DNA of 64,000 nucleotides, from positions 7,850,835 to 7,914,834 of the forward strand of contig NC_057752.1 of NCBI RefSeq assembly GCF_004010195.1. The letters are read 5' to 3'. Numbering within the stretch: position 1 is the first letter of the stretch; each line of letters starts with the position of its first letter. A program made the translations under genes and the position numbers. The DNA is from Chiloscyllium plagiosum (lineage: Eukaryota). Of this stretch, positions 1,106-60,134 are shown one piece after another. The notes beneath the pieces were generated by a model. That model was not told the DNA's origin. It searched no databases and saw nothing but the letters and a program-made list of their open reading frames with translations.

Positions 1106-1462
1106 GTATTTGGAATAAATACTTCAATGCAATCTCAAAGAAGGCAAAATGCATGTGGGGACATGTGTGATGGACCCATTATTTTAAGTGGGTGACCCAT
1201 GTAACCTCCAGTTGACCCAAATATACAAAACTCAAGTTCACTTTCGTTAGGATTGCCCATCCTTTATTACCAACAGATGTGATTGGCAATGTGGAGAGAA
1301 GAATTGTGGAAGCTTTGCCCTATTCCCATGCTGTGACCTCCCTTGAGTCCCAACACAAAAGTTGAATAAAAGAGAGAAATTATATTGCTCAAAGTTTGGG
1401 AGAAGATTTGTAGCTCGGGGCTCGTTGTTGTAGTTCTGTTCGCCGAGCTGGAAATTTGTGTT

Positions 1463-1502
1463 GCAGACGTTTCGTCCCCTGTCTAGGTGACATCCTCAGT
1501 GC
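1463..1502 (-). ncRNA. Minimal hammerhead ribozyme motif (opposite arm), intact core
   Basis: Reverse complement reads GCACUGAGGAUGUCACCUAGACAGGGGACGAAACGUCUGC. Confidence 0.8.
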
Positions 1503-1674
1503 TCGGGAGCCTCCTGTGAAGCGCTTCTGTGATCTTTCTTCCAGCATTTATAGTGATTTGTATCTGCCGCTTCCGGTTGTCAGTTCCAGCTGGAGATACA
1601 GCTGAAGCGGCAGATACCAACCACTATAAATGCCGGAGGAAACATCACAGAAGCGCTTCACAGGAGGCTCCCAA

Positions 1675-1714
1675 GCACTGAGGATGTCACCTCGACAGGG
1701 GACGAAACGTCTGC
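1675..1714 (+). ncRNA. Minimal type I hammerhead ribozyme motif, intact core
   Basis: GCA-CUGAGGA-U-GUCACCU(CGAC)AGGGGAC-GAAA-C-GUC-UGC: helix I GCA/UGC, helix II, palindromic ACGU helix III, GUC cleavage triplet. Confidence 0.8.
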
Positions 1715-2083
1715 AACACAAATTTCCAGCTCGGCGAACAGAACTACAACAATGGTGTTGCTTTTCAGCTGCCTTTAGGAAAAGCATAACTCTTGCTTCA
1801 TGCTATTTGTCAGTGTCATTCTCTTATTGCTTGACTGAAGGTGTGGCTGTTTTCTGTTCTGCAGAAGAAAAAAAAGGTTCAATATTAATGATGAGTTTAA
1901 AATTTAAAATCCATTATTGTAGTAAATGAAAAGATGAAGCAAGAGTGTAAAATTGTACACTGTAAACTTGCTTTTAGAATAATAATATTGATTAAAAAGA
2001 TTGATTTCAATTGTCAGAAGGTCTCTCCCATTTTGAGTCCTTCAGTCTTGTGGATTGCAACATAGTCCTGGAATCTAGATGAG

Positions 2084-2343
2084 GAGAAAGTGAGGACTGC
2101 AGGTGCTGGACATGAGAGTTGAGAGTGTGGTACTGGAAAAGCACAGCAGGTCAGGCAGCTTCCGAGGAGCAGGAGAATCGACATTTTGGGTTTTCCCCCC
2201 CCACCCCTTCCCATTTATCTCTCAGCCCCCCGGCCCACAAGCCTCATTCCTGATGAAGGGCTTATGCCCAAAATGTTGATTCTCCTGCTCCTCGGATGCT
2301 GCCTGACCTGCTGTGCTTACCCAGCAACACACTCTCAACTGGG
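2084..2343. mobile_element. Penelope-derived fold-back element (family B) with decayed hammerhead
   Basis: Inverted arms about 2117-2190 and 2266-2340; CTGATGAAGGGCTTATGCCCaAAAtGTtGA; flanking direct repeat ATCTAGATGAG at 2073-2083 and 2344-2354. Confidence 0.85.
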
Positions 2344-3124
2344 ATCTAGATGAGTTGAACATTGACTGAAAACTTGTGGCTCATTCACTACAAACGTCTG
2401 TGTGTCTAATAAATGGTAAAATTGTTCGCAGTGCAAATGCAATAATATTGGTATGGGATATTGACTTGAAAGTTTCAAATTCTAAATGTAATTGATAGGC
2501 TTTGCATAGATAACAAACTGAAGATAGCATAATAAAACTACTTGTCTGGTGCATTAAAAAATTCAGACGGTAAACGATCTAATGGAAAATTTCCAAGTCG
2601 TTTTGGCATAATTTGACCATCTAATCAGAGCACAATTTTGTGGAAAAATAGGGCAAATGTTGTTCATACCAAGTTCCACCTCCCATTCAGTTCTTTTCTC
2701 ATTCGTTTATTTGCCATGGGCTTTTTGGGCCTTCCTGTGATGTGTCAGCCAAGTTCAATGTGACCAGGTTTTCATATTATAATGAGGGCTGTTGGCACTG
2801 CAGCACCTGGTTTCCTGTTTTTACAATCCAATCATAAGGTAAGTAAAATCTGAAAATTCAATTAGACTGACTTGTGAGGATGGGACCCAATTCCTCACCC
2901 TCTTCCCCACACTGAGAGCTTTTTAGTGTAGATATGGCACGTTGTCATTATTATAGAAGAGCGGCACAGGATGGAACAAAGGGGAATTGGACAGAATTTA
3001 CTGCAAGGTCCATCTGAGCACATCTCTTTCACACCAGTGTATTACCCCACTTTCCCCTTCAAATAAATGAACATTTTTTCACCCACCCTCTCATTCTACA
3101 TTGTAACAAGAAATCAGTCATTTT

Positions 3125-6032: not shown

Positions 6033-7618
6033 GTAGGTCACTTTGAAAAGAATGCAAAAGGTATTTGCTGCAAGAAATCGCACATTCTATGTTTGTAAGC
6101 ATTTTATGTTATGTTGGTTGGAGATCTTTGTCACAATTACCACTTGTACTGATTTACAAACAAAAACTTCTTAGCAAAAAAGAAAACACTGCTATGTTGA
6201 ACTTTACCAGAGCTACTCAAGTCACCAGGGCTACTCAAGTAACCGTGGTATACAATTTTAGAGGCGGTTTCTTTTGGCTCATGCATAAGGTCCAAGACCA
6301 AGCTGTAAAACAAATTTGTAGCAAAGAAGGGCAATTATTATGGGGAGCTGGGATTCCTTGAAAACAATGTTGAGTTCGTGGTAGGCTTGATTCTCAATCC
6401 TACATGAGCTCTGCATTAAGGTGTTGGTGGAATATGGTTGATTATAAGACATTGGACTTGCAATATAGAATCTTTTGAGGTGGTTAGCATGCCACAAGTC
6501 ATTCTTCCCACCACAAATGAAGGACATTTCTTGTATAGCTGATAAGGTGATTTTAGGATTTTTTTTCTCTTTCATTCATTCATTGAATGTGGGCATCACT
6601 GGCTGGGTCAGCATTTATTGCCCATCCCTAATTGCTCTTGAGAAAAATGGGAGTGAGCTGTTTGAACTGCTGCAGTCCATTTGTTATAGGTACACCCACA
6701 ATGCTATTGGGAAGGGAGTTCCAGGATTTTGACTGAGTGCTGATGGAATGAAGAAAGACCCTGTGTTTCCCAAAAAGCCATCACCAAAAAGCTGGACTGT
6801 TCAATATGGCACTTAATTTGATTCAGTTGCAGGGAGCTGAAAACATTTCTTTTCTGTGTCTCCAATAAGTATAATTAACATTTCTTGGGGTATGAAATGT
6901 ACCCGTACTGTACTTTAGCATCTGCTATCATTCATTTTTTTTGTGGCTTCTTGCTGTGAAGTACCTGGTACATGCTATCCACTTCAGGAACTGCACTGCA
7001 TTAAAACACTTGTGGAAACCCTCTGTATGCAAATTAGCTACCATGTTTTCTACATTATAACAGGAGTTACATTTCAAAAGTACTTAATTGACTGTTAGTT
7101 GTTTTGGGACATCCTAAGATTGTGAAATGTGGTTTAAGTATCTAATTTTCTTTTTGTCTGCATCTACTGATCAACTGGCAATTAACTTTCTTGAAAAAGA
7201 ATCTCTTTGTAATTATATATGGGAGATTGAAAGAGAGACCATCTTCTGTAGCATTCATTTAATCTGATACCATGCAGCTTGTATTACTTCAACACACTGT
7301 TAATGATTGAACAACTAACATGTCTCCCTTCTTCAAAAAAAGACATGTTGTTGAAGTTTGACTCATTAGGACAGAGTCGAAAGAATACCAAATCCCAAAG
7401 GGGACAAATATTGTCCTGCATGAGAAGAGGGTGCTGATTGGTTGGTAGAGGTGTTGCCATGGAGAATGTACCAGGGAACAGTTAACTGTCAAGCTTTTGT
7501 TTAAATTCAAGCACTGCAATTCAACTCTGATTCTTAAAGGCATGAAGACACTGAGTACATGAAAGTGTAACTAGCTGATATAGCACACATTGTAGGACAG
7601 CTTGAGTGATTTTCACAT

Positions 7619-7747
7619 AGGTAAAAACAAGGACTGCAGATGCTGGAAACCAGATTCTAGATTAGAGTTGTGCTGGAAAAGCACAGCAGTTCAGGCAGCA
7701 TCCGAGGAACAGGAAAATCGATATTTCGGGCAAAAGCCCTTCATCGG
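7619..7747 (-). mobile_element. Single-arm family B Penelope-derived element
   Basis: Same sequence as the 2084-2343 arms, ends at the hammerhead; perfect 11-bp TSD GATTTTCACAT at 7608-7618 and 7748-7758. Confidence 0.85.
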
Positions 7748-7822
7748 GATTTTCACATGCAGCACAAAAGTCTGGTAGCAGCGCAAGGCCTTGGGATCAA
7801 CCCAGACATACATACCTGTCTT

Positions 7823-8395
7823 AAAAACAGAAAATTCTGGAGAAACTCAGCAGATTTGGCAGCATTTGGGGAGAAAGAACCAGAATTACTGTTTAAAGTA
7901 CAACTTGACACTTCAGAGCCGAAGGAAGTAATATTAGTTGTAGAGAAGTGATGTAAATTCAGACTAGATGTTAATAACAGTCTATATAGGTCATCTCTGA
8001 AAGCATAGTCATGAATACAAGACACTAGAAGGAGGTGGGGGGAATAACATGTAGGACAGAGATCATGGTCTGAAATTATTGAACTCAAATGTTGAGTCCA
8101 GAAGGCTGTAAAATGCCTAAGTGGAAATTAAGGTGCTGTTCGTCCAGCTTGCATTGGGCTTTACTGGAACACTACAGTAGTCTAGAACAGAAAATGTGCA
8201 CATAAGAGCAAAATGGTGTATTAAAATGGCAAGTACTGGAAATCTGGGCCATTTTTACAAGCGCAACATAGGTGTTCTACAAAATGGTCACTAAGTCTGC
8301 ATTTGGCCTCTCAATGTTGAGGAGACTGCATTGTGAGCAGCAAATACAGTCAACTAAGTTGGAAAGAAAGTACAAGTAAATGTTTGCCTCACCAG
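7823..8395 (-). mobile_element. Penelope-like element 3' part: degenerate GIY-YIG endonuclease plus pLTR (family C)
   Basis: Minus strand near 8270-8350 gives YCICCSQCSLLNIE, resembling the YCIRCSxCGLLYIGET GIY-YIG motif; terminal part matches the 51331 and 56835 elements. Confidence 0.75.
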
Positions 8396-8409
8396 GAGGG
8401 GTGTTGAAA

Positions 8410-8940
8410 ATATGCTTCTATTGTATTTTTCTGAGCAACCTTGTTCAAAAATAATTTGTAAAAATGTTTTTGGACTTGTGTAAGAGCAATAACCTGTCTG
8501 ATGTGTCCACTAATGTATGAGCTACCCAAGACACACCAAAAATGATGTTCCTTTTTGTCCTATCATGTCTATGACTGGTTCTGCACAACATGAATTGGCT
8601 AAATTGTTGAGTGAGTTGCTATGAATAGTTTGGGATGGATCTTCCACAGAAATGGTAGAGGGTTTCTTCACCTTCATGAAGACCAATCAGGGCTTGCAAA
8701 TTGATACCAATATTGTTCTTGTGTGTTTGTTTGCTTTTGATAACCTATTTGCTAGTATACCACGTTACTATTGTCATGGTGGTTGAGACAATTGTCTGTA
8801 TTCGTTGAACGTATCAACTTAACTCAGGCAGCTGGAGTTCAGTTTCAATGACATAATCTATGCATGAATAGATTGTGTTGCCATGGGATTCCCTCTAGAT
8901 ACAGTTCTCACTAACAACATCGTTGATTGCCACAGGAAAC
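8410..8940 (+). mobile_element. Degenerate Penelope-like reverse transcriptase fragment
   Basis: Frameshifted remnants of LPKTH..DVP..PIMSMTGSAQHELAK, FD..LF.SIP and VAMGFPL (AMGSPL) motifs. Confidence 0.7.
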
Positions 8941-15080: not shown

Positions 15081-15144
15081 GTCTGTATATGTCTCTGGAT
15101 AATGGTGATAGACTATCAAACATCTCTGTATTCTTTGAAAATGA

Positions 15145-15326
15145 TTTGGAGATGCCGGTGTTGGGCTGGGGTGTACAAAGTTAAAAATCACACAACACCA
15201 GTTTATAGTCCAACAGGTTTAATTGGAAGTACTAGCTTTTGGAGCGCTGATAAAGGAGCAGTGCTCCGAAAGTTAGTGCTTCCAATTAAACCTCTTGGAC
15301 TATAACCTGGTGTTGTGATTTTTAAC
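15145..15326. mobile_element. Penelope-derived fold-back element (family D) with decayed hammerhead
   Basis: Arms about 15179-15247 and 15261-15327; CTGATaA-A-GGAGC-AGT-GCTCC-GAAA-GTTA; perfect 14-bp TSD TTCTTTGAAAATGA at 15131-15144 and 15327-15340. Confidence 0.85.
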
Positions 15327-15627
15327 TTCTTTGAAAATGAGCAGGACAATAGTTTGCGGAAACATTTCAACTGCCCACCCCTGAGCTTACAAGAGCAATG
15401 TGCTAAGGTGGCCTTGTAAATTATAAATTTGCTTGTACTCCCCTTCACCCTGCACTCCCAGTCCTCAAAACACAGCGTATCTAATCTAGGTGGTAGCTGG
15501 TTACAGTGGAAAGTTCAGAACTAAATTAGGCTGTTCATATTGAATCTAAACTCCGATTAAACTTTCGGGAGATTCCTGTGGAAGTCAGGTATCCTTTCAC
15601 TCCAGAGTCAGCTATATGTGTTCTTTC

Positions 15628-19405: not shown

Positions 19406-19509
19406 AACATAAGTATTAGGAGCAGGAGGAGACAATTCAGCCCCTCAAGCCTGCTTGTTTCAGTCCCAGGGTCCACCATACTATGGGATAATGAATTCCA
19501 CAGATTTCA

Positions 19510-26967: not shown

Positions 26968-27058
26968 GTCTGATGAAGGGCTTTTGCCCGAAACATCAAT
27001 TTTCCTGCTCCTCGGATGCTGCCTGACCTGCTGTGCTTTTCCAGCACCACTCTAATCA
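26968..27058 (+). mobile_element. Family B Penelope-derived element, 5' part with hammerhead; remainder at 28441-28478
   Basis: CTGATGA-A-GGGC-TTTT-GCCC-GAAA-CATC; sequence resumes as aatctaatctccagcatctgcag after the inner CR1. Confidence 0.8.
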
Positions 27059-28440
27059 TGTTGGCATAAGCAGGGAAGATGTGGTGGGTATGCTAGAGAT
27101 TATTAAGGTAGACAAATCCCCAGGACCGGATGGGATCGATCCCAGGTTGCTGAGTGAGGCAAGAGAGGAAATAGCTGGGGCCCTGACAGATATCTTTGTG
27201 GCATCCTTAAATACAGGTGAGGTGCCGNNNNNNNNNNNNNNNNNNNNNNNNNNNNNNNNNNNNNNNNNNNNNNNNNNNNNNNNNNNNNNNNNNNNNNNNN
27301 NNNNNNNNNNNNNNNNNNNNNNNNNNNNNNNNNNNNNNNNNNNNNNNNNNNNNNNNNNNNNNNNNNNNNNNNNNNNNNNNNNNNNNNNNNNNNNNNNNNN
27401 NNNNNNNNNNNNNNNNNNNNNNNNNNNNNNNNNNNNNNNNNNNNNNNNNNNNNNNNNNNNNNNNNNNNNNNNNNNNNNNNNNNNNNNNNNNNNNNNNNNN
27501 NNNNNNNNNNNNNNNNNNNNNNNNNNNNNNNNNNNNNNNNNNNNNNNNNNNNAGCAAGTTTGCAGATGACACAAAGATTGGTGGAGTAGCAGAAAGCATA
27601 AGGGACTGTCAGAGAATACAGGAGGATATAGATAGACTGGAGAGTCGGGCGGAAAAGTGGCAGATGGCTTTCAATCCAGACAAATGTGAGGGGATGCATT
27701 TAGACAAGACTAATTCTAGAGCGAATTATACAATGAATGGAAGAGCCTTGGGAAAAGTTGATGGGCAGAGAGATCTGGGAGTTCAGGTCTATTGAAAGTG
27801 GATAGAGTGGTCAAGAAGGCGGCATATAGTATGCTTGCCTTCACTGGACTGGGTATTGAGTATAAGAGCTGGCAAGTCATTGGTTCGGCCGCATTTAGAA
27901 TACTGTGTACAGTTCTGGTCGCCACATTACCAAAAGGATGTGGATACTTTGGAGAGGGTGCAGAGAAGGTTTACAAGGATGTTGCCTGGTATGGAAGGTG
28001 CTAGTTATGAAGAAAGGTTGAGTAGGTTAGGTTTATTTTCACTAGAAAAAAGGAGATTGAGGGGGGACCTGATTGAGGTTTACAAAATCATGAAGGATAT
28101 AGACTGGGTGGCTAGAGACAAGCTTTTTCCCAGGGTGAAGGATTCAATAACGAGAGGTCACGCTTTCAAAGTGAGAGGTGAAAAGTTTAAAGGGGGATAC
28201 ACACGGCAAGTACTTCACACAGAGGATGGTTGGCGTTTGGAACACGTTGCCAGCAGAGGTGGTAGAGGCAGGCACGGTAGATTCATTTAAGATGCGTCTG
28301 GACAGATGCATGAGTAGGTGGGGAGCAGAGGGATACAAATGCTTAGGAATTGACCGACAGGTTTAGACAGTACATTTGCATCAGCTCAGGCTTGGAGGGC
28401 CGAAGGGCCTGATCCTGCGCTGTAAACTTTTTGTTCTTTG
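27059..28440 (+). mobile_element. Inner, younger CR1 LINE (RT and 3' UTR), containing a 325-N gap
   Basis: KSPGPDGI.PR, KFADDTKIGG, LVRPHLEYCVQFWSP and RRLRGDLIEVYKIM motifs. Confidence 0.92.
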
Positions 28441-28933
28441 AATCTAATCTCCAGCATCTGCAGTACCGACTTCTGCCTACATTTAAATGACTGCCTGTCA
28501 TGCGCATGGACAGCAGTGAACTGAGGGGTGCGTAGGTTAGGTAATTTTATTTTAGATTAGGAATAATCCTCGGCACAGCATTGTGGGCTGAAGGGCCTGT
28601 TCAGTGCTTGACTTTTCTATGTTCTATGTTCAAACAGTGTAGCACTCGCTCAGCACTGCACTGGAGGGTTAGCATAGATTTTTGTACTCAAGCCCTGGAG
28701 TGGAACTTAACCCCAGAATATGCTCACTCAGACAAGAATGTTACCTGTTGAATCTGACTGCCAGTATTCTTCCAACATTTGTCATTGGAAGGTGCACTTT
28801 GTCAGATCACCACCAATATTTCTCAATTCTCTAGCGTAAAAATTAAGTTACATTTTACAACGTATCAAAATGAAGACGTGATGAGATTTTGCACTGCATA
28901 TATGTAATGGACGTCTCACATTCTCTATTTTAG

Positions 28934-30106: not shown

Positions 30107-30156
30107 GTAAGGTGTGTGTGTCTGTGTGTGTGTCTGTTTTTTCCCTCGTCCCTATA

Positions 30157-31130: not shown

Positions 31131-31207
31131 AAAGCCACTCACCGTCATGACTTGGAACTAGATCGCCATTCTTTCAATGTTGTTGAGTCAAAATCCTGGA
31201 ATTCCCT

Positions 31208-31420
31208 AAGAGAAAGTGAGGACTACAGGTGCTGGAGATCAGAGCCGAAGAGTGTGGTGCTGGAAAAGCACAGCAGGTCAGGCAGCATCGGGGGAGCAGG
31301 AGAATCGGCGTTTCGGGCATAAGCCCTTCATCAGGAAGGGCTTATGCCCAAAATGTCGATTCTTCTGCTCCTCGGATGCTGCCTGACCTGCTGTGCTTTT
31401 CTAGCACCACGCTCTTCGAC
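31208..31420. mobile_element. Family B fold-back element
   Basis: Inverted arms meeting at the hammerhead (about 31330-31340); perfect 14-bp TSD TCCTGGAATTCCCT at 31194-31207 and 31421-31434. Confidence 0.9.
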
Positions 31421-32824
31421 TCCTGGAATTCCCTCCCTGAGAGCGTTGTGGATTTACCTACAGCACATGGACTGCAGCAGTTCAAGAAGGCAATCCACCA
31501 TCACCTTCTCAAGAGCAACTAGGACCAGCCAGCAACACCGATGTCCCATTCGCAAATTTTTATTTTTTAAATTTGAAAAAATATACAAAGAACTACCTGG
31601 GATCAATCTCAAGTCATGACATTGTTTCATTTGAATAGGAAAGAATATGGGCAGCAAAGGACAAAAGATAATAAAATTAATTTCTATTAGTGAGGGAAGT
31701 TTTCAGGTTGACATGAAGCCATACAAGTATTGGGTCAGTATAAGACAGCTGCTTATCTGTGTTTATTTATACTTTCACTGGATTATTTTTGTCTGCGAGG
31801 TGTGGGCATTGCTGGCCATCCCTAATTGCCCTTGAGAAGATTCTGATGAGTGACCTTCTTCGACTGCTATAGCCCACAAGGTATAGGAACACTAACATGA
31901 CCCAGTGACAGTGAAGGAATAGCAATATAGTTCCGATTCAGAAGTATGTGTGACTTGGAGTGAACTTGCAGGTGGTGGTGCCCTCATCCTTCTGGGTGTT
32001 ACAGATTGCAGACATTGCTGTCAAAGGAGGGTTGGTAAGTTGCTGCAGTACATCTTGTATTTAGCACACACTGTGGATTGGTGATGGAGGGTGTGAATTT
32101 TGAAGGTGCTGGATGAGTTGCCAATCAAGTAAGCTGCTTTGTTGGTATTGAGCTATTTGTTAATTGTTGGCATCCATGCAAGTGGGGAATATTCTACCAC
32201 ACTGATTTGTTCCTTCCAGTTGATGGGCAGGCTTTGGAGAGTCAAAGGGTGAGTTAATCTCTGCAGTATTCCTATCTTCTGACCTGCTCTTGCAGCCACA
32301 GTATTTGTGTAGCTGGTCCAGTTCAGTTTTTGATCAATGGTAATCACCCAGGATGTGGAAGTTATAGAATTCAGTTATGGTAATGTTATTGAATATCATG
32401 AGCAGATGATTAGATTTTCTCTCGATGGAATTGGTGTTTGTGAAAAAATGTTACTTGCCACTTATCAGTCCAAGCTTGATGATGTTCAAGTTTTGCTGCA
32501 TGTAGGTGCAGACTTCTCTGATATCTGAGGAATCGGGAATGGTACTAACATTGCATTATCATTAGTGAACATCCTCACTTCTGACCTTATGGTGAAGGGA
32601 AGGTAATTAATGAAGCAGCTAAAGATAGTTGAGATAAGAAAACTATGCAAACCTCCTGCAGCGATGTCCTGGAGTTGAGATGGCTGAACTACAACAACCA
32701 CACCCATCTTCCTCTAAGCTAGGTATGACTCCATCCAGTGGAGAATGTTCCCCCGATTCCCATTCACTCTATTTTGCTAGGGCTCCTTCATGCCATACTT
32801 GCTTAAATGCAGCCTTGATGTCAA

Positions 32825-36446: not shown

Positions 36447-36652
36447 ACAGAAGCACTCTGCTCTGGAGCAGCATGAAGCAGAGGTTTGGTGAGACTTTCC
36501 CTGGATATCGAAAACCTTTCCCAGAGGCACTTTTGGATGAAGAGGTTTCTTGCTGTCTCACCCGTGCCATCCAGTCACCTGATAAGATAACAAAGAAGGA
36601 AAGAAACTGTGCCAATCCAGTTGCCAAGATACTTCAGCAACAAGAAGTTATG
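36447..36652 (+). CDS. TROAP: TROAP penultimate exon, conserved C-terminal block (FPEALLDEEVSCCLTR...NCANPVAKILQQQEVM)
   Basis: actttcag acceptor, ATG|gtgagt donor, phase 1-0; matches human FHEARLDDECAFYTSR...CTNPVATLLEWQDAL as recalled. Confidence 0.92.
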
Positions 36653-37463: not shown

Positions 37464-38061
37464 AGAGCCAACAAGTCCTGCCCTATTGTTATGAACCTTA
37501 TTCTTCTTTTTTTCATCATCTGTATTAGTGTGTCTTATAACCTGAGGAGACAGGTCTAGTTGTGGACACTTAAAGAGCTTCACTCACTGCTTCAGGGTAT
37601 ATTACCAGTAGATTAGCTGCTTTTCAGTTTTGTTATAATAGAAAAGCTGTGTTTTGTCTACATAATACTCGAGCAGCTCTGCTTGCATTAGAGAACATCT
37701 TGCGGTTTGTTAACTATATAAACTGCCCAATTAGCACAAGTATGCTGAAGGCATGACCTGCTTCTGGTTGATCTCATAACTGTATAAATTGTCTAATGTT
37801 CAAAATATACTCTCCCTTCAATCAGAACTGATGTGCACTCTGTCATGAAGATTTTCATTCTAGCATCAGTTTCTGTCTTGTGCTGCTGTCCTTTTTAAAG
37901 GTCTCCAGCTATAAACAATAGAATTAATTTTGCTCCTCATGCTTGAACTCTCATAATTAACACTAATACCCTTTTTAACCAGTTAGTTCAGAGTTTTTGT
38001 GGGTTTTTATTTTTTAAAATTTGTGATATTAAAAAGATATGATTAGAAAAATTAGTTTGTA

Positions 38062-38340
38062 AAGCGAGACATGTTGCTGAATCTTTTTACCTTGCACTCA
38101 TCAGGACAAATGCAAGAATGCCAAATTTCAAACAATTGCATCAATTTAAATTCTGATCAACCAAGGCATTGGCACAGAGAAAGCAATGGGAACTATAGGT
38201 GCCCCTATGGTTCAATGTACAAACTAATCAGCACGCTTTCTTCCCAAAGTATAAATTGTTGCAATAATTCGATATTTGACATTCTAGTGTTTTGTTCTGA
38301 TCAGTGCAAGACAAAAAGGTTCAGCAATGTGTCTCTTTCT
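38062..38340. mobile_element. Old inverted-repeat element with degenerate hammerhead-like arms (family E); related piece at about 7335-7530
   Basis: Arms about 38062-38132 and 38268-38338; left arm minus strand GTC-CTGATGA-GTGCAAG..., right arm TTCTGATCAGTGCAAGACAAAAAGGTTC. Confidence 0.55.
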
Positions 38341-39157
38341 TTTCACCAGGTTTCAAGAAATATTACTGCAAATGTTTGTCCTTGTTTAAATATCACAGTG
38401 CTCCCAAGGTTTCTCAATCTTGAATTGCATCAATTAAATAAAATGTTCCCAATAAACAACAGGCAGAAATATGATGACTGCCACACAATTAAAGAAAGCT
38501 CTTGGCAGTTTTCACACTGTATATTGCCTCATTTAACTTTATTTGCAGTACAAAAGCAAGCTTTTTATTCACAATAACTAGTCTTTTGTGCCACCACCAA
38601 ACCACCATGAATTCAAATTAGGCAAAAAAACGTTTGTTCTCCATTTCTGCATTGCTTGGTGTGACTGCAAGCTATAAGAGGACATCATTTTGCATCAGTG
38701 CTAATCTTTGTTATGGAAATGTGGACTTGCTACAAACCTTGAAAACCTTTTCTCTCAACAAAGATTGAATTTTAATACTTCTGACAATTGCAGTTAACAA
38801 TTTACTAATAAGTAAATGACCTAATAAAGCTGTTCCACTACACTTCGTAGATCAAAAATATTCAGGTCCCAAGTTCATCCTTTAATGCTTGGTTAGGCAT
38901 TTGTAGAACCTTAAAACTTGCATAACAAATAGAAACTCCACTGAACTATTTTGAGCTGCAAATGGTTGGTTTGTCTGTTAACTTCTCCTAACGATTCTGG
39001 TCAACCCTGTTCATGTCAACCATCGTTTTAAGATTTGGTGGGTAGTTTAACGGCCAGATTGCAGCTAAGATTCTCCATTTATCTGGACTAGGGCCTGGCA
39101 CTGATACACACACACTGGCCTGCCTACATCAGTGCTTGGGTTCTTTTGTAGCCACTT

Positions 39158-39374
39158 GGAGATAGTGAGAACTGCAGATGCTGGAGAGTCAAAGTGGATA
39201 AAGAATGGAGCTGGAAAATGTATGGCAGGTCACACAGCCTCAGAGGAGAAGGGGAGTTGACATTTCAGGTTGTAGCCTTTCATCAGGACTTCATTTGTCC
39301 TGAAATGTCAACTCCCCTTCTCCTCTGATGCTGGCTGACCTGCTGTGCTTTTTCCAGCTCCACTCTTTATCCAC
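39158..39374. mobile_element. Older family B-related fold-back element
   Basis: Inverted arms; flanking repeat TTCTTTTGTA(G/T)CCA at 39141-39154 and 39375-39388. Confidence 0.75.
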
Positions 39375-40046
39375 TTCTTTTGTATCCAACAAGCCATAGA
39401 GTGGGACTTGGGGGGGGATTGGTTACAAAAAGGGCCTTCCAGCTCAGAAACAGAAGAATTGCCCACTTTAGCTTTTATTTTGAACTTTAAACACTTTCTG
39501 TAGATGAACCATTCCAATCTTGTGTATTCTGCTTTTGATTTTAATCTTTGCATTACAAAGGAAACTACACTGTAGCCTGACTCTCCACTGTAGGATAGTT
39601 TTAGAAGTTCTTAACTGAAACATTCAGATTTTCCATTCATATTGTAATACCTTATTGTAAATGTCTCTGCTAAATCTGATAATTTATCTGCAAAGTTTAT
39701 CTTTCATCTTTAGCCATCTTATGATTGCCTTTGTTATTACACTGGTCTGTTCAGGACTTTTGTATGCTGTGTACATTTTGTATATTAACTACTATGCAAA
39801 TAAAGCTTTATTGTATATTTATTTATTTGCTCCTTTGTACTTTTTTTGAAATAGGATTTATTTGTGAAGTCTAGTTTACATTGTTGAACCTGTACCAATC
39901 GATAGTCACTATAAAGAGATATCAGGCTTCTGGTATATGTTTTGTCTATTTTTTCTGAGAAAAGCAATGCATAGAAATTATAACTATTATTTACTGAGGA
40001 GCCAAGATTTGATCCCTGAATCAGCAGTAAAATATATCCATGCATA

Positions 40047-46679: not shown

Positions 46680-48559
46680 GTAGGTCATTTGATGGGAAAT
46701 AGTAAAGCTCAGTACACCTTGCAAACCTGTACACATTTCATAGTACATTTATTGACACTTGAAAAGAAATTCTATTCTATTTAAAATGTCACCTTCAATG
46801 GCTCAGTGGGCACATACATCATCAGGCACAGTTCTAAGCCACACAGATTTGGATGGCTTGATCCCTGGCCTGTGCTCAAATCACTTGTAGAAGCTAGTGT
46901 AACAGTGAAGGCATGACTCCTGCCCTCAGTATCTCCACGCTAGAGAAAGGGCAAACTGGTCAAGATTCCCAGTCAAGGGACTGTAAATGGAAACTACGTG
47001 GGTGGAAGTATGAGGTTCCATCAGATTTGTTGGCAATGGCTTTAGCTCATCAAGCCTCATATGATAACACCTTGTAAATCTGCAACCTCTGTCACCTAGA
47101 AGGGCAAGGGCAGTAAAAGCATGGGAACATCAATATCTACTACTTGCCCTCCAAGCCACATAATGTCATTGGTATTTCTTCACAATTGCTGGATCAAAAT
47201 CCTGGAACTCCCAAACAGCTCTCTGGGTTTACCTACACCACAAAGTAGTTCAAGAAGGCTCACCACAAGTTCTCCAGGTCAGTGAGTGATGGGCAATAAT
47301 TGCCAGTGATGCCCACATCCTGTGAATGAACAAAAAGGATATCTATTTAACAATTCAATACATTTCTCCAATTATATTGAAGAGAGAATCATCAGAGCTG
47401 TTAAGACCCTGCATTGTTATTAGCTTTCAAATAAAGGAATAAACAGCATGAGGTTGAACTGGAAGGAGTCATGTAAGACTGTAAGTTGCGTAAACAAATA
47501 TCAATATTGTAAGGTATAGAAGCCATTATTGAAGTGGATCAGCGGACACTGAACAAAGCAGGCCATTATTATATATTGACTTCTATAGTACTTTTAGCTG
47601 AACAGCTTTTTCTGGCGATTTCTCCTGGATTAAACTTTTCCATAACATCAGTGCTTGCCAGCACAGATTTGTCATAATCCCAAGGAGGTTGTAGTATAAT
47701 CATGTGCTATGCAATACTCTGACAATGCATTTCCTTGTTGCAGTAATAAGTGACAATCCTGACCACTTAGTCATTCCAGCCAAAAATAAATAATGTGGGT
47801 GTGAGGAAATTATGAAATAAGGATAACTGGTTTTGAGAAATAAAATGAAAAGCTGTATTTCCTCATTAAGAATATTGAATACTTTAATTCACCTGTGGAA
47901 CATAGGTGTCACTAACTAGCTGGCATTTATTGCCCATCCCTGATTGCCCCTTTAGGAAGTGGTGGTGTGCTACCTTCTTGAACTACTGCAGTACATGTGC
48001 TGTGGGTTGATCCACAATGCTGTTAGAGAATGAATTCCAGGATTTTTACCCAGTGACAGCAAAGGAACAGCGATATATTTCCATGTCAGGACGGTGGGTG
48101 GCTTGAAGGGGAACTTGCAGCTGGTGGAGTTCCCATGTATCTGCTGCGCTTGTCCTTCTAGATGGAAGTGGTCGTGGATTTGGAAGACTGTCTCAGGATC
48201 TGTGGTGAATTTCTGCAGTGCATCTTGTAGATGGTACACACTGCTGCAACTGAGTGTTGGTGGTGGAGGGTGTGGATGCTTGTGAAATACTGTTCATGTA
48301 CCAGCAGCCAATCCACAGTCAGCAACATACAGCCAGCTTGCAAGATATGCCTATTAGCCAAGCACCAGCTGCTATTCACTCACCCAGCACCAGCTGGATT
48401 TCAGTAGTCAGTGGAGCTGACAGTCTGCTGCCTGGAGAAAAATGTTTTTGGTTCAAATGGCACAGTATTCTGTGGATTGCAAATAAGGTATCATGAACAA
48501 GGCCAATATCATCTAATGATGTCATCAGCAGCCAAACTGCAGACAGTCATCAAAAACCA

Positions 48560-48725
48560 ATCTGACAGTTTGGAAAGGAAAATAGAATTAACCTTTCAGG
48601 TTAATGAACTTTCATCATACATTAACTATGTTTCTCTACCTGCACATACCTACTGACCTGTTGAGTATTTCCAGCACTTTATATTTTTATTTCAGCCCTC
48701 CAGTATCTGCAGTATTTTGCTCTTT
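48560..48725. mobile_element. Old Penelope-derived pLTR fragment (family C-like)
   Basis: ctgacctgttgagtatttccagcactt...ccagtatctgcagt tail shared with the 51331 and 56835 elements; short inverted start. Confidence 0.6.
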
Positions 48726-50965: not shown

Positions 50966-51330
50966 GTATTGATCGATCATAGGGGCAAAACAGAATTAAT
51001 CTGTTCAGGATCAAAACTAATCCAAAGCATTTGGAAGATAATTCTAAGACCCACACAACTTACCTTCTGGAGTTTGGGATTTCTTTTTACCTTTTTTCCC
51101 CACAAATTTTACATCTCATATCCAAACAAAACTAACACACGTTAGAAAATGTAAGCAATAATTTCACAAATATGCAGTATTTTGAGAATTATGACTTGTT
51201 CAGAATTTAATATTTTGTTTAAAAGACAACGACCGCAGGATCCTACAGGGAATCCTGTCAATAGATAGTTTTGAAAGTAGCATGTTCGGAAACACTGCAA
51301 ACAGCTAGAAATACCAGAGAGTTTCCCTGG

Positions 51331-51526
51331 AACAAAAATGGAAATTGCTGGAGAAACTCAGCAACTCTAGCAGTGTTTGTGGAGAGAAAACAGTTAACGT
51401 TTGAGTCCATAGTTCTGAAGAAATCATACTTAACTTGAAACGTTAACTCTGTTTCCTGATTTGCTGAGTTTCTCCAGAAATTTCTGGTTTTGTTTCAGAT
51501 TTCCAGCATCTGCAGTTCTTTGTTTC
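51331..51526. mobile_element. Family C fold-back Penelope-derived element with decayed hammerhead
   Basis: aattgctggagaaactcagca / tgctgagtttctccagaaattt arms; CTGAAGA...GAAACGTTA at about 51415-51445. Confidence 0.75.
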
Positions 51527-52500: not shown

Positions 52501-52835
52501 TCAATTCACCTGACCTGCACATCTTTGACTGTGGGAGGAAACCGGAGCAAACCCAGAGGGAGAATGTGCAAACTCCACACAGACAATTGCTTGAGGTGGG
52601 AATTGAACCTGGGTCCCTGGTGCTGTGAGGCTGCAGCGCCAGGGACCCAGGTTCAATTCCTGCCTCAAGCAATTGTCTGTGTGGAGTTTGCACATTCTCC
52701 CTCTGGGTTTGCTCCGGTTTCCTCCCACAGTCAAAGATGTGCAGGTCAGGTGAATTGACAGAGGGAGAATGTGCAAACTCCACACAGACAATTTCTTGAG
52801 GTGGGAATTGAACCTGGGTCCCTGGCACTGTGAGG
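52501..52835. repeat. HE1-like SINE inverted triplication (-,+,-) forming a ~258-bp near-perfect palindrome
   Basis: 52501-52625 is the reverse complement of 52634-52758; 52759-52835 repeats 52553-52629. Confidence 0.9.
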
Positions 52836-52867
52836 TACATTAGTAGGTAAAGTTTCTTACACAAGAC

Positions 52868-54455
52868 TGAGTCCAGTGACCCTTCGTCAGATCTGGAGAC
52901 GGGCCTCAGAAACATCCACCTTTTTTTTTTTTCCTCAATCGAGGATTCCCCACTATCCCCACAGCTCTCAGCTGCGTCTGACCTCTTTCTGTATTTCTAA
53001 TCTCACCTTTCCCTTGCCTTCCCTCCCACAATGATAGAGTTCCCCGGTCCTCGCCTATCATCTCACTAGCCTCCACAACCAAAGGCTCATAAGCTGCCAT
53101 TTCTTCCCCCACCAGCAGGATACTATCACCACACACACAATTTCCCTCCCCACCTTTGTCAGCCTTCCATAGGGACCACTCCCTCCAGGACACCCTGGTC
53201 CAGCCCTCCTCTGCTCCCATCACCTTCCCATACCCCCATAGCACTTTCCAATGCAATTGAGGAAAGGATAATATTTACACATTTACCTCCTCCGTACCTA
53301 CATGATCCAAGGCCCTGACACACCCTACTGGGGAAGCAATGACTTAGCTGCACTTCACACAATCTAGTCTACTGTATTCGCTGCTCATGATGTGGTCTCC
53401 TTTACATCGGGCAGACAAAGCACTGACTGGGTGACGATTTTGCAAAACTCCTATTCTACCATAAAAATGACCCTGCGCTTCCAGTTTTCTGCTACTTTAA
53501 CACGCTGCCATGTTCCTTGGCCAACATCTGTCTCAGGCTAGCTGAAGTGCTCCAGTGAGGCTAAGTGCAAGCTGGAAGAACAGCATCTTATCTTCCACCT
53601 TACATCCTTCGGGACTCAACATTGAGTTTGACACATTCAGAATGTGATCACCCTCTGCCACCGCTAGGTCCCGTCCAATATGGGCTGCTCCCAGCACAGT
53701 CAACCCACTTTAAATCATTACACTTCTTGACAGCACTCAACCATGCTATTATCTCCCACGACTTACCAGCAATCTCTTTATTTGCCTATTCATTGAGTCA
53801 TAGTCATACAGCACGGAAACAGACCCTTCCTTCAGTTCAACTCGTCCATGCCAACCAGGTTTCCCAAACTAAACTACTCACATTTGCCTGCATTTCATCC
53901 ATATCCTTAATGTTTCCTAGTCATGTACCTGTTCAAATGTCTTTTAAATGTTGTGACTACCTGCATTTACCACTTCCTCTGACAGTTCATTCCATATACG
54001 CACCGTCCTGTGGAAAAAGTTGCCCCTCCGTTCCCTTTTAAATATGATTCCCCTACTTTTGAACTCCCCCACCCTAGGAAAAGAACTTTGCTATTCACCC
54101 TATCCATGCCCCTCATGATTTTATAAATCTCTTAGGTGACCCTCAACTTCCTACACTCCAGAGGAAAAGAAAGCCTATACTTATAACTCAAACCTTCCAG
54201 TTCAGTAACATCCTTGTAAATATTTTCTTCACCCTTTCCAATTTAATAATATCCTTTCTATAACAAGGCAACCTGAACTGTATGCAATTCCACACCCCCA
54301 CCCCATTATTAGTATAAATTCCACCTTTCCCCAGCTATCTTCAGTTCTGACAATGGGTCACTGTACTGCAAACATTAACAGATGCTGCCAGACCTGCCCT
54401 GCTTCTCCACACTGTTTTTCAGATTTCCAGCATCTGCATTTCTATGTCTCTATTT
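52868..54455 (+). mobile_element. 5'-truncated Penelope-like element with GIY-YIG endonuclease remnant, inverted 5' pLTR piece and 3' pLTR; CR1 inserted at 53795-54290 (-)
   Basis: TSHNLVYCIRCS*CGLLYIGQTKH*LGDDF at about 53352-53442; gagtccagtgacccttcgtcaga (52869-52891) is inverted relative to tctgacaatgggtcactgtact (about 54346). Confidence 0.85.
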
Positions 54456-55640: not shown

Positions 55641-55817
55641 GGAATAGTGCGGATCTATCTAATTGAAGCAGCAAGCCTGGAATCAAAGGACACCTACGTT
55701 AAGGGATTCATTAAAGGAAAGTCTGATCCATATGCAATTGTACGAGTGGGCACACAGGCATTCATGAGCAAGACTGTCAGTGAAACAGTGAATCCCAAGT
55801 GGAATGAAATGTATGAG
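55641..55817 (+). CDS. ESYT1: ESYT1 exon, C2A domain (GIVRIYLIEAASLESKDTYVKGFIKGKSDPYAIVRVG...PKWNEMYE)
   Basis: ttatccctag acceptor, GAG|gtgggt donor, 177 nt; GKSDPY and PxWNE C2 motifs. Confidence 0.97.
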
Positions 55818-56834
55818 GTGGGTGAATATGATTGCATGTCTCATAGTCATTTCAACCTTTTTAACCAGCAGCTTAAAATATGACTTCTGCAATTCCCAGG
55901 AAAACAGTTTTGTGATATACTGGCTGTAGAGGTTTAAAATCTGAAGCAGGACTCAAATTTGTGAATGTCAGGGAATTCTGGCATTTTCACCCTGAACCTA
56001 CAAATGCAACTTAGCCTGGTCAATCTCGCAGAGCCCTCCTAACCAACACCTGCACGCTTGTCTCACATTTGAAAGAACTGTCCCACAGACTCAGTGACTG
56101 CCTGGCATTGTAAGGTGTGATTCCATGAGTATGACTGTGTCACAGGCACTACCATCACCAACTCTGGACAAACCCAGCAGAGATGATGGCATAGTGATAC
56201 ACAGTCATGAACGAGGTGCTCTCGGTGTTCACAACATTAATTCTGACACCTCCATGGTATTGGTTTGGACATTGGGTAGGAAACCTGCTGGTTACCACGC
56301 ACCATCCTCCCTTGGCCGATGACTCTGTGCTCCTCCACATTGAACAGTAGTTTCAACAAGCACTGAGGGTGGCAAGGGCACAACATACACAAGGTAGGAG
56401 ATTTCGATGTCCCTCATCAAGATTGGCTCGGCAGCAGCCCTACTGACTGAGCTGGCCGAGTCTGAAAGGGCATAACGAGACTGGGCCTGCGACAGGCAGT
56501 GAAGAAAAACAGGAGGAAAAAACCTACTTGACCTACACCTCAATTTTCCCAGCAGAGATGCGTTCATCTGTGACAATATCAATAGGAGTGACCATTGCAC
56601 AGTCCACGTGGAAATGAAGTTCTGTTTCTACATTGAGGATACCTTCCATCATGTTGTGTGGCATTATCACTGAGCTAAATATGACAGACTTTGAACAGAT
56701 CTAGCAACTAAAGAAGGCATCCATGAGGTGCTGTGGGCCACCATCAACAGCAGAATCATACTTGGCACAATTTTTGTAAACTTTTTACCAGGCATCTCCC
56801 TCACTCTACTGCTCCCATTAAGCCATGGGATCAA

Positions 56835-57027
56835 AATCGGAAATTGCTGGAGAAACTCAGCAGGTCTGGCAGCATCTGTCAAGAGAAATCTGAGTTAATG
56901 TTCTGAAGAAGGATCACTGGATCCAAAAACATTTACTCTGCCTCCTCTCCCCAGTTACTGGCAGTCCTGTTGAGTTTCTCCAGAATTTTTTTCTTTCCAA
57001 TTCCAGCAGCTGCAGTTCTTTAATTTT
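56835..57027. mobile_element. Family C fold-back element
   Basis: Inverted arms; CTGAAGA-A-GGATC-ACTG-GATCC-aAAA; TSD AGCCA(T/A)GGGATCAA at 56821-56834 and 57028-57041. Confidence 0.82.
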
Positions 57028-58744
57028 AGCCAAGGGATCAACCCTGGCTCAATGGGGAGTGCGCGATGGCATGCCAAGAGCAGCACCGAGCACACCTAAA
57101 AATGAGGCGTCAACTTGTGAAGCTACCAAACTTGTATGGAAAAGGAGCATATTGTAGAGAGAACTAAGTATTCCACAACCGATGGATCAGATCTAAGCTC
57201 TGCAGCCCTGGCAAATCTAGTTGTAAATGGTGGCAGGCAAATAAACATTTCACTGGAGGAATAGGCTCCAAACATCTCCACTGTCAACAATGGTGGAGCA
57301 CAGCACATCAGTGCAAATGATAAGGCTGAAGCATTTCTCACACTCTTCAGCCAGAAGTGTCGATCCATTTTGGCCTCCACCAGAGATCCCCATCATCACA
57401 GATGCCAGTCTTCAGCCAATTCGATTCAAGAAATGATTGGAGACGCTGGATACTACAAAGGCTATGGGTCCTGACAACATTCTGGCAACAGTACTGAAGA
57501 CTTGTGCTCCAGAACTTGTCGCTCCCCTAGCCAAGCTGCTCCAGTACAATTACAATACTGGCATCTACCCAACAATGTGGAAAATTGTCCAGCCCTGCCT
57601 TGTCCACAAAACGTAGGGCAAATCCAATCCACCCAATTACCACCCCATCAGTCTACTCTCAATCATCAGTAAAGTGATGGAAAGGATCATCAACAGTGAT
57701 ATCAATCAGCATTTGCAAAGATATAATCTGCTCAGTTTTGGTTCTGTCAGGATCATTCTGACCTCATTATAGCCTTGGTTCAAATATGGACCAAAGAGCT
57801 GAATTCCAGATGGGAGGTGAGTGACTGCCCTTGACATCAAGACCACAGCATTTGAGTGAGTATGGCATCAAGGAGCCTAGCAAAACTTTAGTCAGTGAGG
57901 ATTGCGGGAAATCCCTCTGCTGGTTGGAGTCCCATTTAGCACAAAGCAGGATAGTTTTTGTTGGAAGTTAATCATCATCTGAACCCTCAGATCTCTGCAG
58001 GCATTCCTCAAGGTAGTGTCCAATCTGCTTCATCAATGACTGCTCCTACATCAGAAAATGTAGATGTCAGTGGGGATGTTTGCTGATGATTGCACAATGT
58101 TTTGGAGCATTGTGACTTCTCTGACTTATTGAAACAGTTTGTGCCCACAGCAAGATCTGCACAATTTTTGTGCTTGGGCTGATAAGTGGCAAGTAACATT
58201 GCCTGGCACATGAGACAAAACTGACCATCTCCAATGAGAGAATCTAACCATTGTCCCTTGACATTCAATGGTTTTACCAACAGTAAATCTTCCACTATCA
58301 AAATCCTGAGAGTTACTATTGACAGAAACTAAACTGGACTGGCCGTATAAATTCTATGGCTGAAAAAGTAGGTCAGAGGCCAGGAGCCTGTGGTGAGTAA
58401 TTGACCTCCTGACTCCCCAAAACCCATCTATTGAAAAGGCACATGTCAGGAGTGTGATAGAATTCTCCCCACTTGTCTGGGTGAATGCAACTCGAACACC
58501 ACACAAGAAGCTTGACACAATTGAGAAAAAAGCAGCCTGCTTGACGGAACCTCGTGCATCACCTCCACCATCCTCTCTTTCACTACTGATACTTACTTAA
58601 TAGTGGCAGTATGTACTATCTACAAGATGCACTGCAGAAATTCAAGGCTTCTTCCAAGCCCATGACCACTTCCAGAAAAGCAAGGGCAGCAGTACAAGGG
58701 AACACCACCACATCAAAGCCCCTCACCATCCTGGCTTGGAAACA

Positions 58745-59366
58745 CAGAGGAACCTCCAATTATCCAAATTTCGGATTATCCAAAGAAGATTTCAAGGTCC
58801 CACAAAAGTGTTGTATCAAAGAAGTAAGTGTGTTTGATTTACCTGTACTGAAGAACATGTGAAAACGCTGGCAAAAACAAAGATTCAAGCATCAGCGACT
58901 GGACTTTTTTTTTAAGGTAAGGGTTGTTACACAGCCTTTTGCAAAAGTAAGTGTTTTACAGCACGGGGTATTCCTGTCACTTTACCAGGCCATTCACTAA
59001 AAACAAAATGGCCACGAACGTGAATGCATGCACGAGGCAGTGTTTCTGTCTTTCTATCGTGAGACTGAGTTCCCGGAAACTGACAAATCCTCTTGCGATT
59101 GTAGAAGCTGTTCAGGACCTTTGTTTGATGCTGGGATTTGATATACGGTATTAGTGATGCTGAGTCCTTCTCAGTTTAACCTGAAATTTGCAGACTGCAA
59201 GGATTGTTTAAATGACACACACACACTCATTAAAATTATAGATTTAAACTAATTCTCTAGTCGAGCACAGCTTTCGATCAGTATGGCTTCCCTTGTTTAA
59301 GGTAAAATCAATTATCTGAACGAAATAGTGCCCGCCCATCTCATTCAGATAATCGACGTTCCTCTG
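58745..59366. mobile_element. Tigger-like non-autonomous DNA transposon inserted in the LINE 3' region
   Basis: TIR CAGAGGAACCTCCAATTATC / GATAATCGACGTTCCTCTG followed by TA; host LINE sequence resumes after it. Confidence 0.75.
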
Positions 59367-59684
59367 TATATTGCAGTTCCTTCACTTGCTGGATCGAAAT
59401 CTTGGAGCTCTCTTCCTAACAGCATTATAGGTCTACCTACACCGTGGATTGCAGCATTTCTACTGAAGGCATACCACCACCTTCTTGAGGGCAACTAGGG
59501 AAGACAATAAATGCTGGCTAAGCCAACAATACCCACATCCCATGAATGATTTTCTTTAGACAAATGTTTCAGTGTTCACTTATCTTTGTTTTTAAAATGG
59601 CCGTCTCTCGAAGTTCTAAGTCTGTCTGTCCTCTTTCCCTGTCTCTCTGGGCCATAGACTACACAATACTTGAGATGTTTGGTG

Positions 59685-59951
59685 CTGAAAATGTGTTGCT
59701 GGAAAAGCACAGCAGGTCAGGCAGCATCCAGGGAACAGGAGAATCGACGTTTCGGGCATAAGCCCTTCTTCAGGAATCTTCCTAACAGCATTATAGGTCT
59801 ACCTACACCAAGTGGATTGCAGCATTTCTACTGAAGGGCTTATGCCCGAAACGTCGATTCTCCTGTTCCCTGGATGCTGCCTGACCTGCTGCGCTTTTCC
59901 AGCAACACATTTTCAGCTCTGATCTCCAGCATCTGCAGACCTCACTTTCTC
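59685..59951. mobile_element. Young family B fold-back element with captured genomic loop
   Basis: Near-identical inverted arms; perfect 16-bp TSD CTTGAGATGTTTGGTG at 59669-59684 and 59952-59967. Confidence 0.92.
59744..59775 (-). ncRNA. Minimal hammerhead ribozyme motif, intact core
   Basis: Minus strand UC-CUGAAGA-A-GGGC(UUAU)GCCC-GAAA-C-GUC-GA. Confidence 0.78.
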
Positions 59952-60134
59952 CTTGAGATGTTTGGTGACCTGTGTATTCTTTGTCACGAACAGTATGGGA
60001 GAAAGGAGCAATATTCCATCAAAGGTCATTATCTTTTTTTTCCTCAGTATCTTAGCTAGCATCATATTCGAAATGGAGAATATTCTCCAATTTCAGCATA
60101 GTCTGGAACTGCGTAGACTCACACACCATTAACT

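Follow-up and report, generated by a model that had tools for sequence, protein, structure and literature searches.

Penelope-like elements (PLEs) that encode an endonuclease, from the Neptune and Penelope/Poseidon clades, share pseudo-long terminal repeats (pLTRs) with a hammerhead motif, an inverted 5' copy, a one-sided tail of 30-40 bp, target site duplications (TSDs) of variable length as well as a GIY-YIG endonuclease at the C terminus with two cysteines between its motifs (PMC8557442, PMC3846280). The inverted 5' copies and the tail are standard features of the group (PMC8557442, PMC8969392), and the Penelope transposition cycle and the origin of the inverted structure are still called undefined (PMC8557442). 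The same features recur in a set of short elements in 64,000 nucleotides of Chiloscyllium plagiosum (contig NC_057752.1, positions 7,850,835 to 7,914,834; hereafter the window), where, unlike the known cases, most insertions are pLTR-only head-to-head pairs shorter than 370 nt. These elements are interpreted here, with a probability of about 0.75, as insertion products of endonuclease-bearing PLEs, each formed anew at its own site by two-strand priming on uncleaved RNA and microhomology joining.

The minimal hammerheads of metazoan PLEs have an extra base between A9 and position 10.1, a short helix I and a palindromic helix III (PMC4209133), and their cleavage as dimers has been summarised in a review (PMC6765202). 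Opposite-strand pairs of these motifs, 100-700 bp apart, were already reported in 2014, together with thousands of dispersed single motifs in vertebrate genomes that were ascribed to truncated PLEs; the sections considered name no cartilaginous fish and contain no analysis of junctions, tails or TSDs (PMC4209133). In vitro work on PAc, a Poseidon element of Anolis carolinensis, found that both target strands are cut and extended, that two internal start sites of the reverse transcriptase (RT) bracket the tail and that uncleaved RNA is used (PMC11167929). The sections of that paper considered describe no pLTR-only fold-backs, junctions or 5'-end pile-up, and its Fig. S2, which shows how the pLTR is covered in the genome, may be relevant to the last of these. 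Retrozymes of the non-LTR kind are, like the elements of the window, non-coding, hammerhead-bearing and related to pLTRs (PMC7229834; bioRxiv 10.64898/2026.07.22.740005), but they form head-to-tail tandems with at least two ribozymes on the same strand, whereas the elements here are head-to-head pairs or singles. The open-access literature, to which the search was confined with most subscription journals outside its scope, yielded nothing on elasmobranch pLTR fold-backs or on a 5'-end pile-up at a start site.

The window has about 40% GC, three N gaps, 62,920 called bases and abundant remnants of long interspersed nuclear elements (LINEs); all counts given here refer to this single 62.9-kb window and are not scalable to the genome. 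The preliminary description had listed at least ten short elements and a possible further one at 38062, and genuine pLTR pieces were found at all 11 sites, with coordinates exact or off by no more than about 10 nt. That list was nevertheless incomplete, since five more PLE pieces are present (7337, 7819, 28430, 48550 and 52866), two of them with endonuclease remnants, which brings the total to 16, of which 14 lack and two retain part of an open reading frame (ORF). The listed sites amount to one per 5.7 kb of called bases (11 per 62,920), and all PLE pieces together occupy about 7% of the window (4.4 of 62.9 kb, with bounds set by hand). Self-comparison and an inverted-repeat search identified nine of the 11 listed sites as fold-backs (1398, 2084, 15145, 31208, 38062, 39158, 51331, 56835 and 59685), all with an antisense left arm and a sense right arm; the other two, 7619 and 26968, are single arms. 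The usual pairing of a long tailed arm with a shorter inverted one, as first described, is thus borne out, with a tail in eight of the nine. Short Penelope-derived fold-backs are real, and their architecture has already been described (PMC8557442, PMC11167929, PMC4209133).

Alignments in ribozyme-sense orientation separate five families: A with six sites (2084, 7619, 26968, 31208, 39158 and 59685), C with two listed sites (51331 and 56835), and B, D and E with one listed site each (1398, 15145 and 38062). Families A and C are related, as indicated by cross-family nhmmer matches (E 1e-5 to 1e-11); when the five family models were run against the window, B, D and E matched no other family, and the reversed window gave no match to any model. 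The idea of at least four dissimilar families therefore holds for the separateness of B and D and fails for A and C, so that four groups are reached only when 38062 is counted. Positions within arms are numbered from hammerhead C3 as +1, elements are named by their start coordinate, and pieces absent from the preliminary description are marked as new in the following lines.

1390..1752: family B fold-back (1398), its layout apparently Poseidon-like; tailed arm 1390-1591 (-) and short arm 1604-1752 (+), separated by a 12-nt filler; intact minimal hammerheads with C3 at 1499 (-) and 1678 (+); TATA box at -53 in both arms; no TSD
2084-2340, within 2068..2354: family A fold-back; TSD 2068-2083 / 2339-2354; tailed arm ends at +18, short arm extends to about -59, the sole family-A upstream sequence
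7337..7460 (-): new; single family E pLTR remnant with a CCAAT-like box; nhmmer E 0.002
7619-7747, within 7608..7758 (-): single tailed arm of family A, no fold-back; 11-bp TSD
7819..8414 (-): new; 5'-truncated PLE copy with decayed GIY-YIG endonuclease end, then a tail-less family C pLTR that stops at the short site; tblastn matches from 27/151 proteins, span 8088-8414
15143-15328, within 15131..15340: family D fold-back (15145); 14-bp TSD; 3-nt microhomology arm overlap at C3; core mutated at G8
26968..27057 (+): single tail-less arm of family A, flanked by two LINE pieces; no TSD
28430..28478 (+): new; weak tail-only A/C fragment adjoining a LINE 3' end; nhmmer E 0.001
31208-31422, within 31194..31434: family A fold-back; 14-bp TSD; arms to -3 and +6 with 3-nt overlap
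38060..38340: family E fold-back (38062); arms 68% alike; no tail and no convincing TSD; both cores mutated; junction upstream of the promoter motifs
39158-39376, within 39141..39388: family A fold-back of a divergent subfamily; 14-bp one-mismatch duplication, 3 nt off the left end
48550..48723: new; old family C fold-back; nhmmer E 1e-11 and 0.3, the left arm being weak; possible 13-bp two-mismatch duplication
51327..51525: family C fold-back (51331); tailed arm begins at -4; strict hammerhead descriptor passed only via a weak helix II; no TSD
52866..54449 (+): new; 5'-truncated PLE that opens with a stub of an inverted 5' pLTR, 52866-52899 (-); decayed coding part (RT thumb, linker, GIY-YIG) at about 52897-53644, later LINE insertion at about 53790-54292, then a tailed family C pLTR; TATA box 54313 (-34), initiator-like A 54343 (-4), C3 54347
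56830-57026, within 56821..57041: family C fold-back (56835); 14-bp one-mismatch TSD; arms to -3 and +25 with 3-nt overlap
59411..59469 (+): local template of the junction filler of 59685; 59/59 aligned bases identical, one 2-nt gap
59684-59951, within 59669..59967: family A fold-back (59685); 16-bp TSD; 61-nt filler 59777-59837; short arm to -4 with intact hammerhead 59773 (-); tailed arm begins at +5

The junctions carry much of the argument. All ten fold-backs (the nine listed and 48550) are arranged head-to-head with their 5' ends innermost, and an inverted 5'-truncated copy thus stands at the 5' end of these ten and, as the stub 52866-52899, of the longer PLE. The four family-A junctions all differ from one another (4/4), the arms overlap by 3 nt at three junctions (31208, 15145 and 56835), and the filler of 59685 was copied from a template about 300 nt away (score 111, against 52 for the next best match elsewhere), with overlaps of 1 and 6 nt at the filler ends. 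Locally templated filler at an inversion junction is typical of end-joining repair or of a template jump. Differing junctions and local filler imply that the junction was made at the target site rather than inherited from a master hairpin. Furthermore, in four of the nine tailed fold-backs (2084, 15145 and 59685 firmly, 48550 weakly) the arm without a tail extends beyond the tailed one on the 5' side, so that each arm holds sequence absent from the other and neither can have been copied from the other; in the remaining five the tailed arm includes all of the short one.

The preliminary description placed the junction usually at or near the hammerhead, which is true of most elements but not of 1398 and 38062, whose junctions lie about 70-95 nt upstream of the ribozyme. 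A junction at the ribozyme cleavage site itself was ruled out, as no arm begins there. Every A, C and D arm of the listed elements and of 48550 begins upstream of that site, the closest at +25 against +28/+30, in agreement with the use of uncleaved RNA as substrate in vitro (PMC11167929). By eye, the junction of 39158 (39288-39303) also permits another reading, in which a small hairpin formed and the short arm then lost 18 nt between two repeats of 5 nt; the short arm of 39158 would in that case start at -3 rather than +18.

The outer ends are just as informative. Direct repeats of 11-16 bp flank seven of the 11 listed sites, as the preliminary description had noted: 11 bp at 7619, 14 at 15145 and 31208, 16 at 59685 and, given as exact length and length with one mismatch, 11/16 at 2084, 10/14 at 39158 and 8/14 at 56835. 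Among 600 random site pairs, 11 exact bases were never reached (0/600) and 13 with one mismatch were reached once (1/600). A search allowing up to two mismatches found no convincing TSD at 1398, 26968, 38062, 51331, 7337, 7819 or 52866. The described TSDs of rotifer PLEs, 8-10 bp in the cases reported (PMC3846280), are shorter than those found here, and the AT-rich (ATT) cut preference of PAc (PMC11167929) is not evident by eye in the seven TSDs. Three of the seven (2084, 31208 and 56835) contain a perfect palindrome of 6-8 bp (P about 0.01-0.05 against random stretches of the window, with three statistics tried), which may be the trace of a dimeric nuclease or may be chance.

A one-sided tail is present in eight of the nine listed fold-backs, 38062 being the exception, and measures 28-37 nt where measurable across families A, B, C and D (in 51331 an internal deletion of the tailed arm affects it); family E has none. 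In family A both outer ends are fixed, the short arms ending at +88 to +95 (5/5) and the tailed arms at +124 to +129 (5/5), and these ends and the tail length match the 30-40 bp tail and the two RT start sites described previously (PMC11167929, PMC8557442).

The assignment to PLEs, proposed from the start, is supported and, for family C, tied to an ORF within the window. In the two longer copies, 52866-54449 (+) and 8414-7819 (-), a family C pLTR adjoins a decayed GIY-YIG endonuclease with CxxC between its two motifs, located upstream of the 3' pLTR. The coding remnant of the first copy is frameshifted, represents the RT by its thumb end alone and is matched at 63% by a whale shark gene model, a search with which gave 1542 proteins at E<=0.001. 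The best 150 of these 1542 were listed and 151 proteins were compared with the window by tblastn, 144 of which match the 53000-53499 bin of the first remnant. Among seven long relatives scanned (E<=0.001), five have an RT together with a GIY-YIG domain at the C terminus and no other domain, one has C2H2 fingers in addition and one has GIY-YIG only; RVT_1 is present in six of the seven. A word-index protein search for such relatives had passed none of 123 candidates, and an exhaustive search recovered them. A cysteine linker (CX2-5CxxC) ahead of the endonuclease, which is typical of the Neptune clade (PMC8557442), is present in all three of the long relatives inspected for it and is decayed in the window. 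The similarity between the two families supports a tie of family A to the same GIY-YIG ORF; family C, and hence A, looks Neptune-like. Family B looks Poseidon-like, as an ATG at A9 opens a frame of 34 codons that runs through the tail, matching the layout of the anole element (PMC11167929), where the ORF starts at stem II; the short end of family B lies, by eye, in an AC-rich run similar to the one in Fig. S1 of that paper.

None of the 151 proteins matches any of the short elements in tblastn, so protein evidence does not place the ORF start within the arms, and no spacer between arms contains an ORF remnant in the same comparison. The nearest named relatives of the coding remnants are gene models of whale shark, stingray and little skate (six of nine proteins looked up have such names), which makes an elasmobranch the most likely host, and PLEs are reported as expanded in whale shark introns (10.1101/443036). 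Three public ray or skate gene models, annotated as 'mucin-2' or 'uncharacterized', contain Penelope endonuclease sequence and are thus transposon remnants in the annotation.

Next to the inverted stub of the endonuclease-bearing copy, whose outer part is missing, lies a near-perfect hairpin (52501-52835) with 125-nt arms that are 98% complementary, an 8-nt loop and a third partial copy of its unit. The unit is like a short interspersed nuclear element (SINE), which we take to resemble the shark HE1/V-SINE type, and the hairpin may be either a genuine fold-back of the SINE or an error of the assembly.

With respect to the hammerheads, a strict minimal type I descriptor of our own design found four intact motifs in three elements, 1499 (-), 1678 (+), 51415 (+) and 59773 (-), all within listed elements; 200 dinucleotide shuffles gave a mean of 0.02 and a maximum of 1. 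The core CUGANGA / GAAA / UH and the helix features are all shared with the published minimal motifs (PMC4209133): an additional base follows A9 in 14 of the 16 core-spanning arms, helix III consists of nothing but a palindrome, and helices I and II vary in sequence among families while remaining paired. All core bases are kept in only six of the 16 arms, many others showing CpG-type changes, and the Rfam scan returned no hammerhead among 20 matches at E<=10. No energy-based support for ribozyme activity emerges from folding: none of seven stretches beat its shuffles (z -1.0 to +1.3), the dimeric hammerhead fold lies 9-24 kcal/mol above the cofold minimum in three of three motifs, and the hammerhead is the lowest-energy fold neither as monomer nor as dimer. 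The motif is real and ancestral and mostly decayed, with activity only putative. The claim that hammerheads are very abundant in this genome was overstated, given that a single window of 62.9 kb holds four intact ones, and their mass occurrence in vertebrates is already published (PMC4209133).

Taken together, these observations suggest the following course of events. The GIY-YIG nuclease would nick both target strands about 11-16 bp apart, as the TSDs indicate. Each target 3' end would then prime RT on uncleaved RNA, one at the tail end and the other about 33 nt further in, in line with the two fixed ends found here and with the two in vitro start sites of the anole element. The inward-pointing cDNAs would be trimmed and joined by microhomology, sometimes with local filler, presumably by a repair route; priming on one strand only would leave a single arm. 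In families A, C and D, priming in the 5' pLTR of the transcript may produce two run-off cDNAs, about 90 nt and about 125 nt long, of which one is trimmed at joining, whereas in B, in E and in the short arm of 2084 the promoter-side sequence might come from a downstream pLTR or from plain truncation. The hammerhead would be a passenger at the RNA 5' end that does not set the junction by cleavage. Two familiar processes offer partial likenesses. In the twin priming of LINE-1, two target primers are used and the inversion is joined by microhomology; there, however, the two parts are free of overlap, while the arms found here are both copies of one segment. The minus-strand strong-stop DNA of LTR elements is, like the presumed product here, a short cDNA running off at the RNA 5' end, and it is not inserted by itself.

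On the inside, too, the arms stop at a sharp boundary. The count covers 11 ORF-less A, C and D insertions, including 48550 and 28430 and leaving aside B, E and both endonuclease-bearing copies; the family-A reaches were scored stepwise along a single upstream reference, and those of C and D were read by eye. The furthest-reaching arm ends within -4 to +2 of C3 in nine of the 11, the exceptions being 2084 (about -59) and 28430. Independently of the reference, an overlap, TSD, filler or flank confines this reach to -6 or nearer to C3 in eight of the nine and to -12 in 39158. Of the four A/C copies with upstream sequence, three show an initiator-like A at -4; in one the A is preceded, at a distance of exactly 30 nt, by a TATA box, and a second has only a weak TATA-like run at -36. 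Position -4 is accordingly proposed as the transcription start on motif prediction, and we give even odds to the view that the short A, C and D cDNAs ran off at an RNA 5' end about -4 from C3. A wider statement can be made only tentatively, at odds slightly short of even: that the majority of the genome's PLE insertions represent complete copies, in pairs, of the RNA 5' leader and not random truncations, arising from two internal starts in the upstream pLTR, run-off at the capped 5' end (the first base of helix I) and head-to-head joining. In D. virilis an intron ends at helix I. The same was rejected for family A, where AG is missing at that place, and the junctions show no exon upstream; family C, with a pyrimidine run followed by CAG, could have such an intron.

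Several facts weigh against these interpretations. A TSD is missing at four of the 11 listed sites and at both endonuclease-bearing copies. The window contains neither an intact element nor, apart from the thumb end, an RT-coding remnant; Pfam found GIY-YIG in one of three remnant pieces, below its cutoff (E 0.074), and left the other two blank. For families B, D and E the window offers no link to an ORF, and it is by architecture that they are counted as members. The simulated P of the clustering of nine of 11 ends within 7 nt, from 0/300,000 (<1e-5) to 4e-4, refers to uniform nulls that are arbitrary and post hoc, uses positions read by eye and treats copies as independent when they are not. 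The proposed start rests on motifs, with a clear TATA box at the right distance in one copy only, and 1398, 38062 and the short arm of 2084 extend past it, which requires another template or plain truncation. Finally, the promoter of D. virilis Penelope is internal and TATA-less (PMC2377424).

Other explanations must be set against two-strand priming. The same chemistry could act on a dedicated short non-coding pLTR RNA of about 130 nt, from start to tail, mobilised in trans as a SINE-like non-autonomous unit from promoter-bearing solo or 3' pLTRs. This would suit the excess of ORF-less over ORF-bearing pieces (14 to 2), the mobilisation of a host gene in trans by pLTRs alone in a rotifer (PMC3846280) and the TATA and CCAAT motifs kept in some copies, and it predicts the same boundary at -4. 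However, A, C and D inserts that end at -4 lack the TATA region and would need an internal promoter for further spread, and the transcript of the autonomous element, whose leader is identical, accounts for the products with no need of a further element; this variant is possible but rather improbable. Random 5' truncation, or a later loss of the central part of longer copies with inverted pLTRs, in which the ribozyme structure would do no more than stall the enzyme, is in keeping with the usual 5' truncation of PLEs with an inverted 5' copy (PMC8557442), of which 52866-54449 is an example, and with the upstream reach of 1398, 38062 and 2084. It is nonetheless unlikely in view of the sharp, physically bounded limit at -4 in nine of 11 copies, which an enzyme travelling 3' to 5' would meet only after passing the ribozyme, on its 5' side, and of spacers free of ORF remnants.

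Snap-back self-priming, in which a palindrome (helix II) lets the cDNA fold back and serve as its own template for the inverted arm, has been suggested for rotifer PLE junctions with palindromes (PMC3846280) and would fit the five fold-backs with a contained short arm and the many breakpoints in ribozyme stems. The mutually exclusive arm sequence in four of nine tailed fold-backs (three firm) favours two priming events instead, and the short end is fixed and also terminates two single-armed copies (26968 and 7819), so that snap-back appears quite unlikely. The preliminary description had left the choice between pLTR-only truncations and retrozyme- or MITE-like units (MITE, miniature inverted-repeat transposable element); pLTR-only products fit, and copying of a whole unit is disfavoured by the unequal ends, variable TSDs, differing junctions, local filler and lack of head-to-tail arrays. 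Non-LTR retrozymes spreading through circular RNA do have type I hammerheads and derive from pLTRs (bioRxiv 10.64898/2026.07.22.740005), but the nhmmer matches of the five family models include no head-to-tail array, paired motifs lie on opposite strands, the hammerheads are of the minimal kind and for the most part broken, and no arm starts at the cleavage site, all of which makes them highly improbable. Even less credible are MITEs of DNA transposons with terminal inverted repeats, whose short, non-coding, fold-back shape the elements share: instead of fixed ends and constant short TSDs, the ends are unequal by 28-37 nt and the TSDs vary between 11 and 16 bp, single arms occur with a TSD, the family-A copies do not share one internal sequence (all four junctions differ), and there is a direct link to a GIY-YIG ORF. 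By the refuting condition set in the preliminary description, fixed inverted ends with constant short TSDs, the MITE reading has already failed. A SINE origin was rejected, since Rfam found no tRNA-, 7SL- or 5S-derived head in any listed element at E<=10.

Other features of the window were noted in passing. An exon-like stretch at 55641-55820 (+) encodes a C2 domain (Pfam E 2e-10), presumably resembling extended synaptotagmin, in which case the elements nearby would be intronic. At about 9300-11150 (+) there is a decayed LTR-retrotransposon region with an aspartyl protease match, and four stop-free stretches of 83-180 codons without Pfam match (29629-30168, 28934-29182, 36440-36763 and 733-1167, all +) are possibly host exons. 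An inverted repeat at 19348-19455 apparently stems from two meeting LINE 3' ends rather than from a Penelope piece, and it matches no family model.

Hairpins of this kind can pass for MITEs, SINEs or microRNA precursors, and sub-threshold Rfam microRNA matches occur in two listed elements (59685 and 15145), which matters for repeat annotation. The sharp inner boundary is the part worth following, as a near-constant inner end suggests a mode of action of the copying enzyme. Short inserts offer a cheap genome-scale test of two-primer insertion against snap-back, and of the RNA 5' end as the limit of the cDNA. If the elements are indeed paired copies of the RNA leader, the short helix I of the ribozyme would be fixed by the promoter, and thousands of copies would record, family by family, where transcription starts, where RT starts (at both sites) and how far the nicks are staggered.

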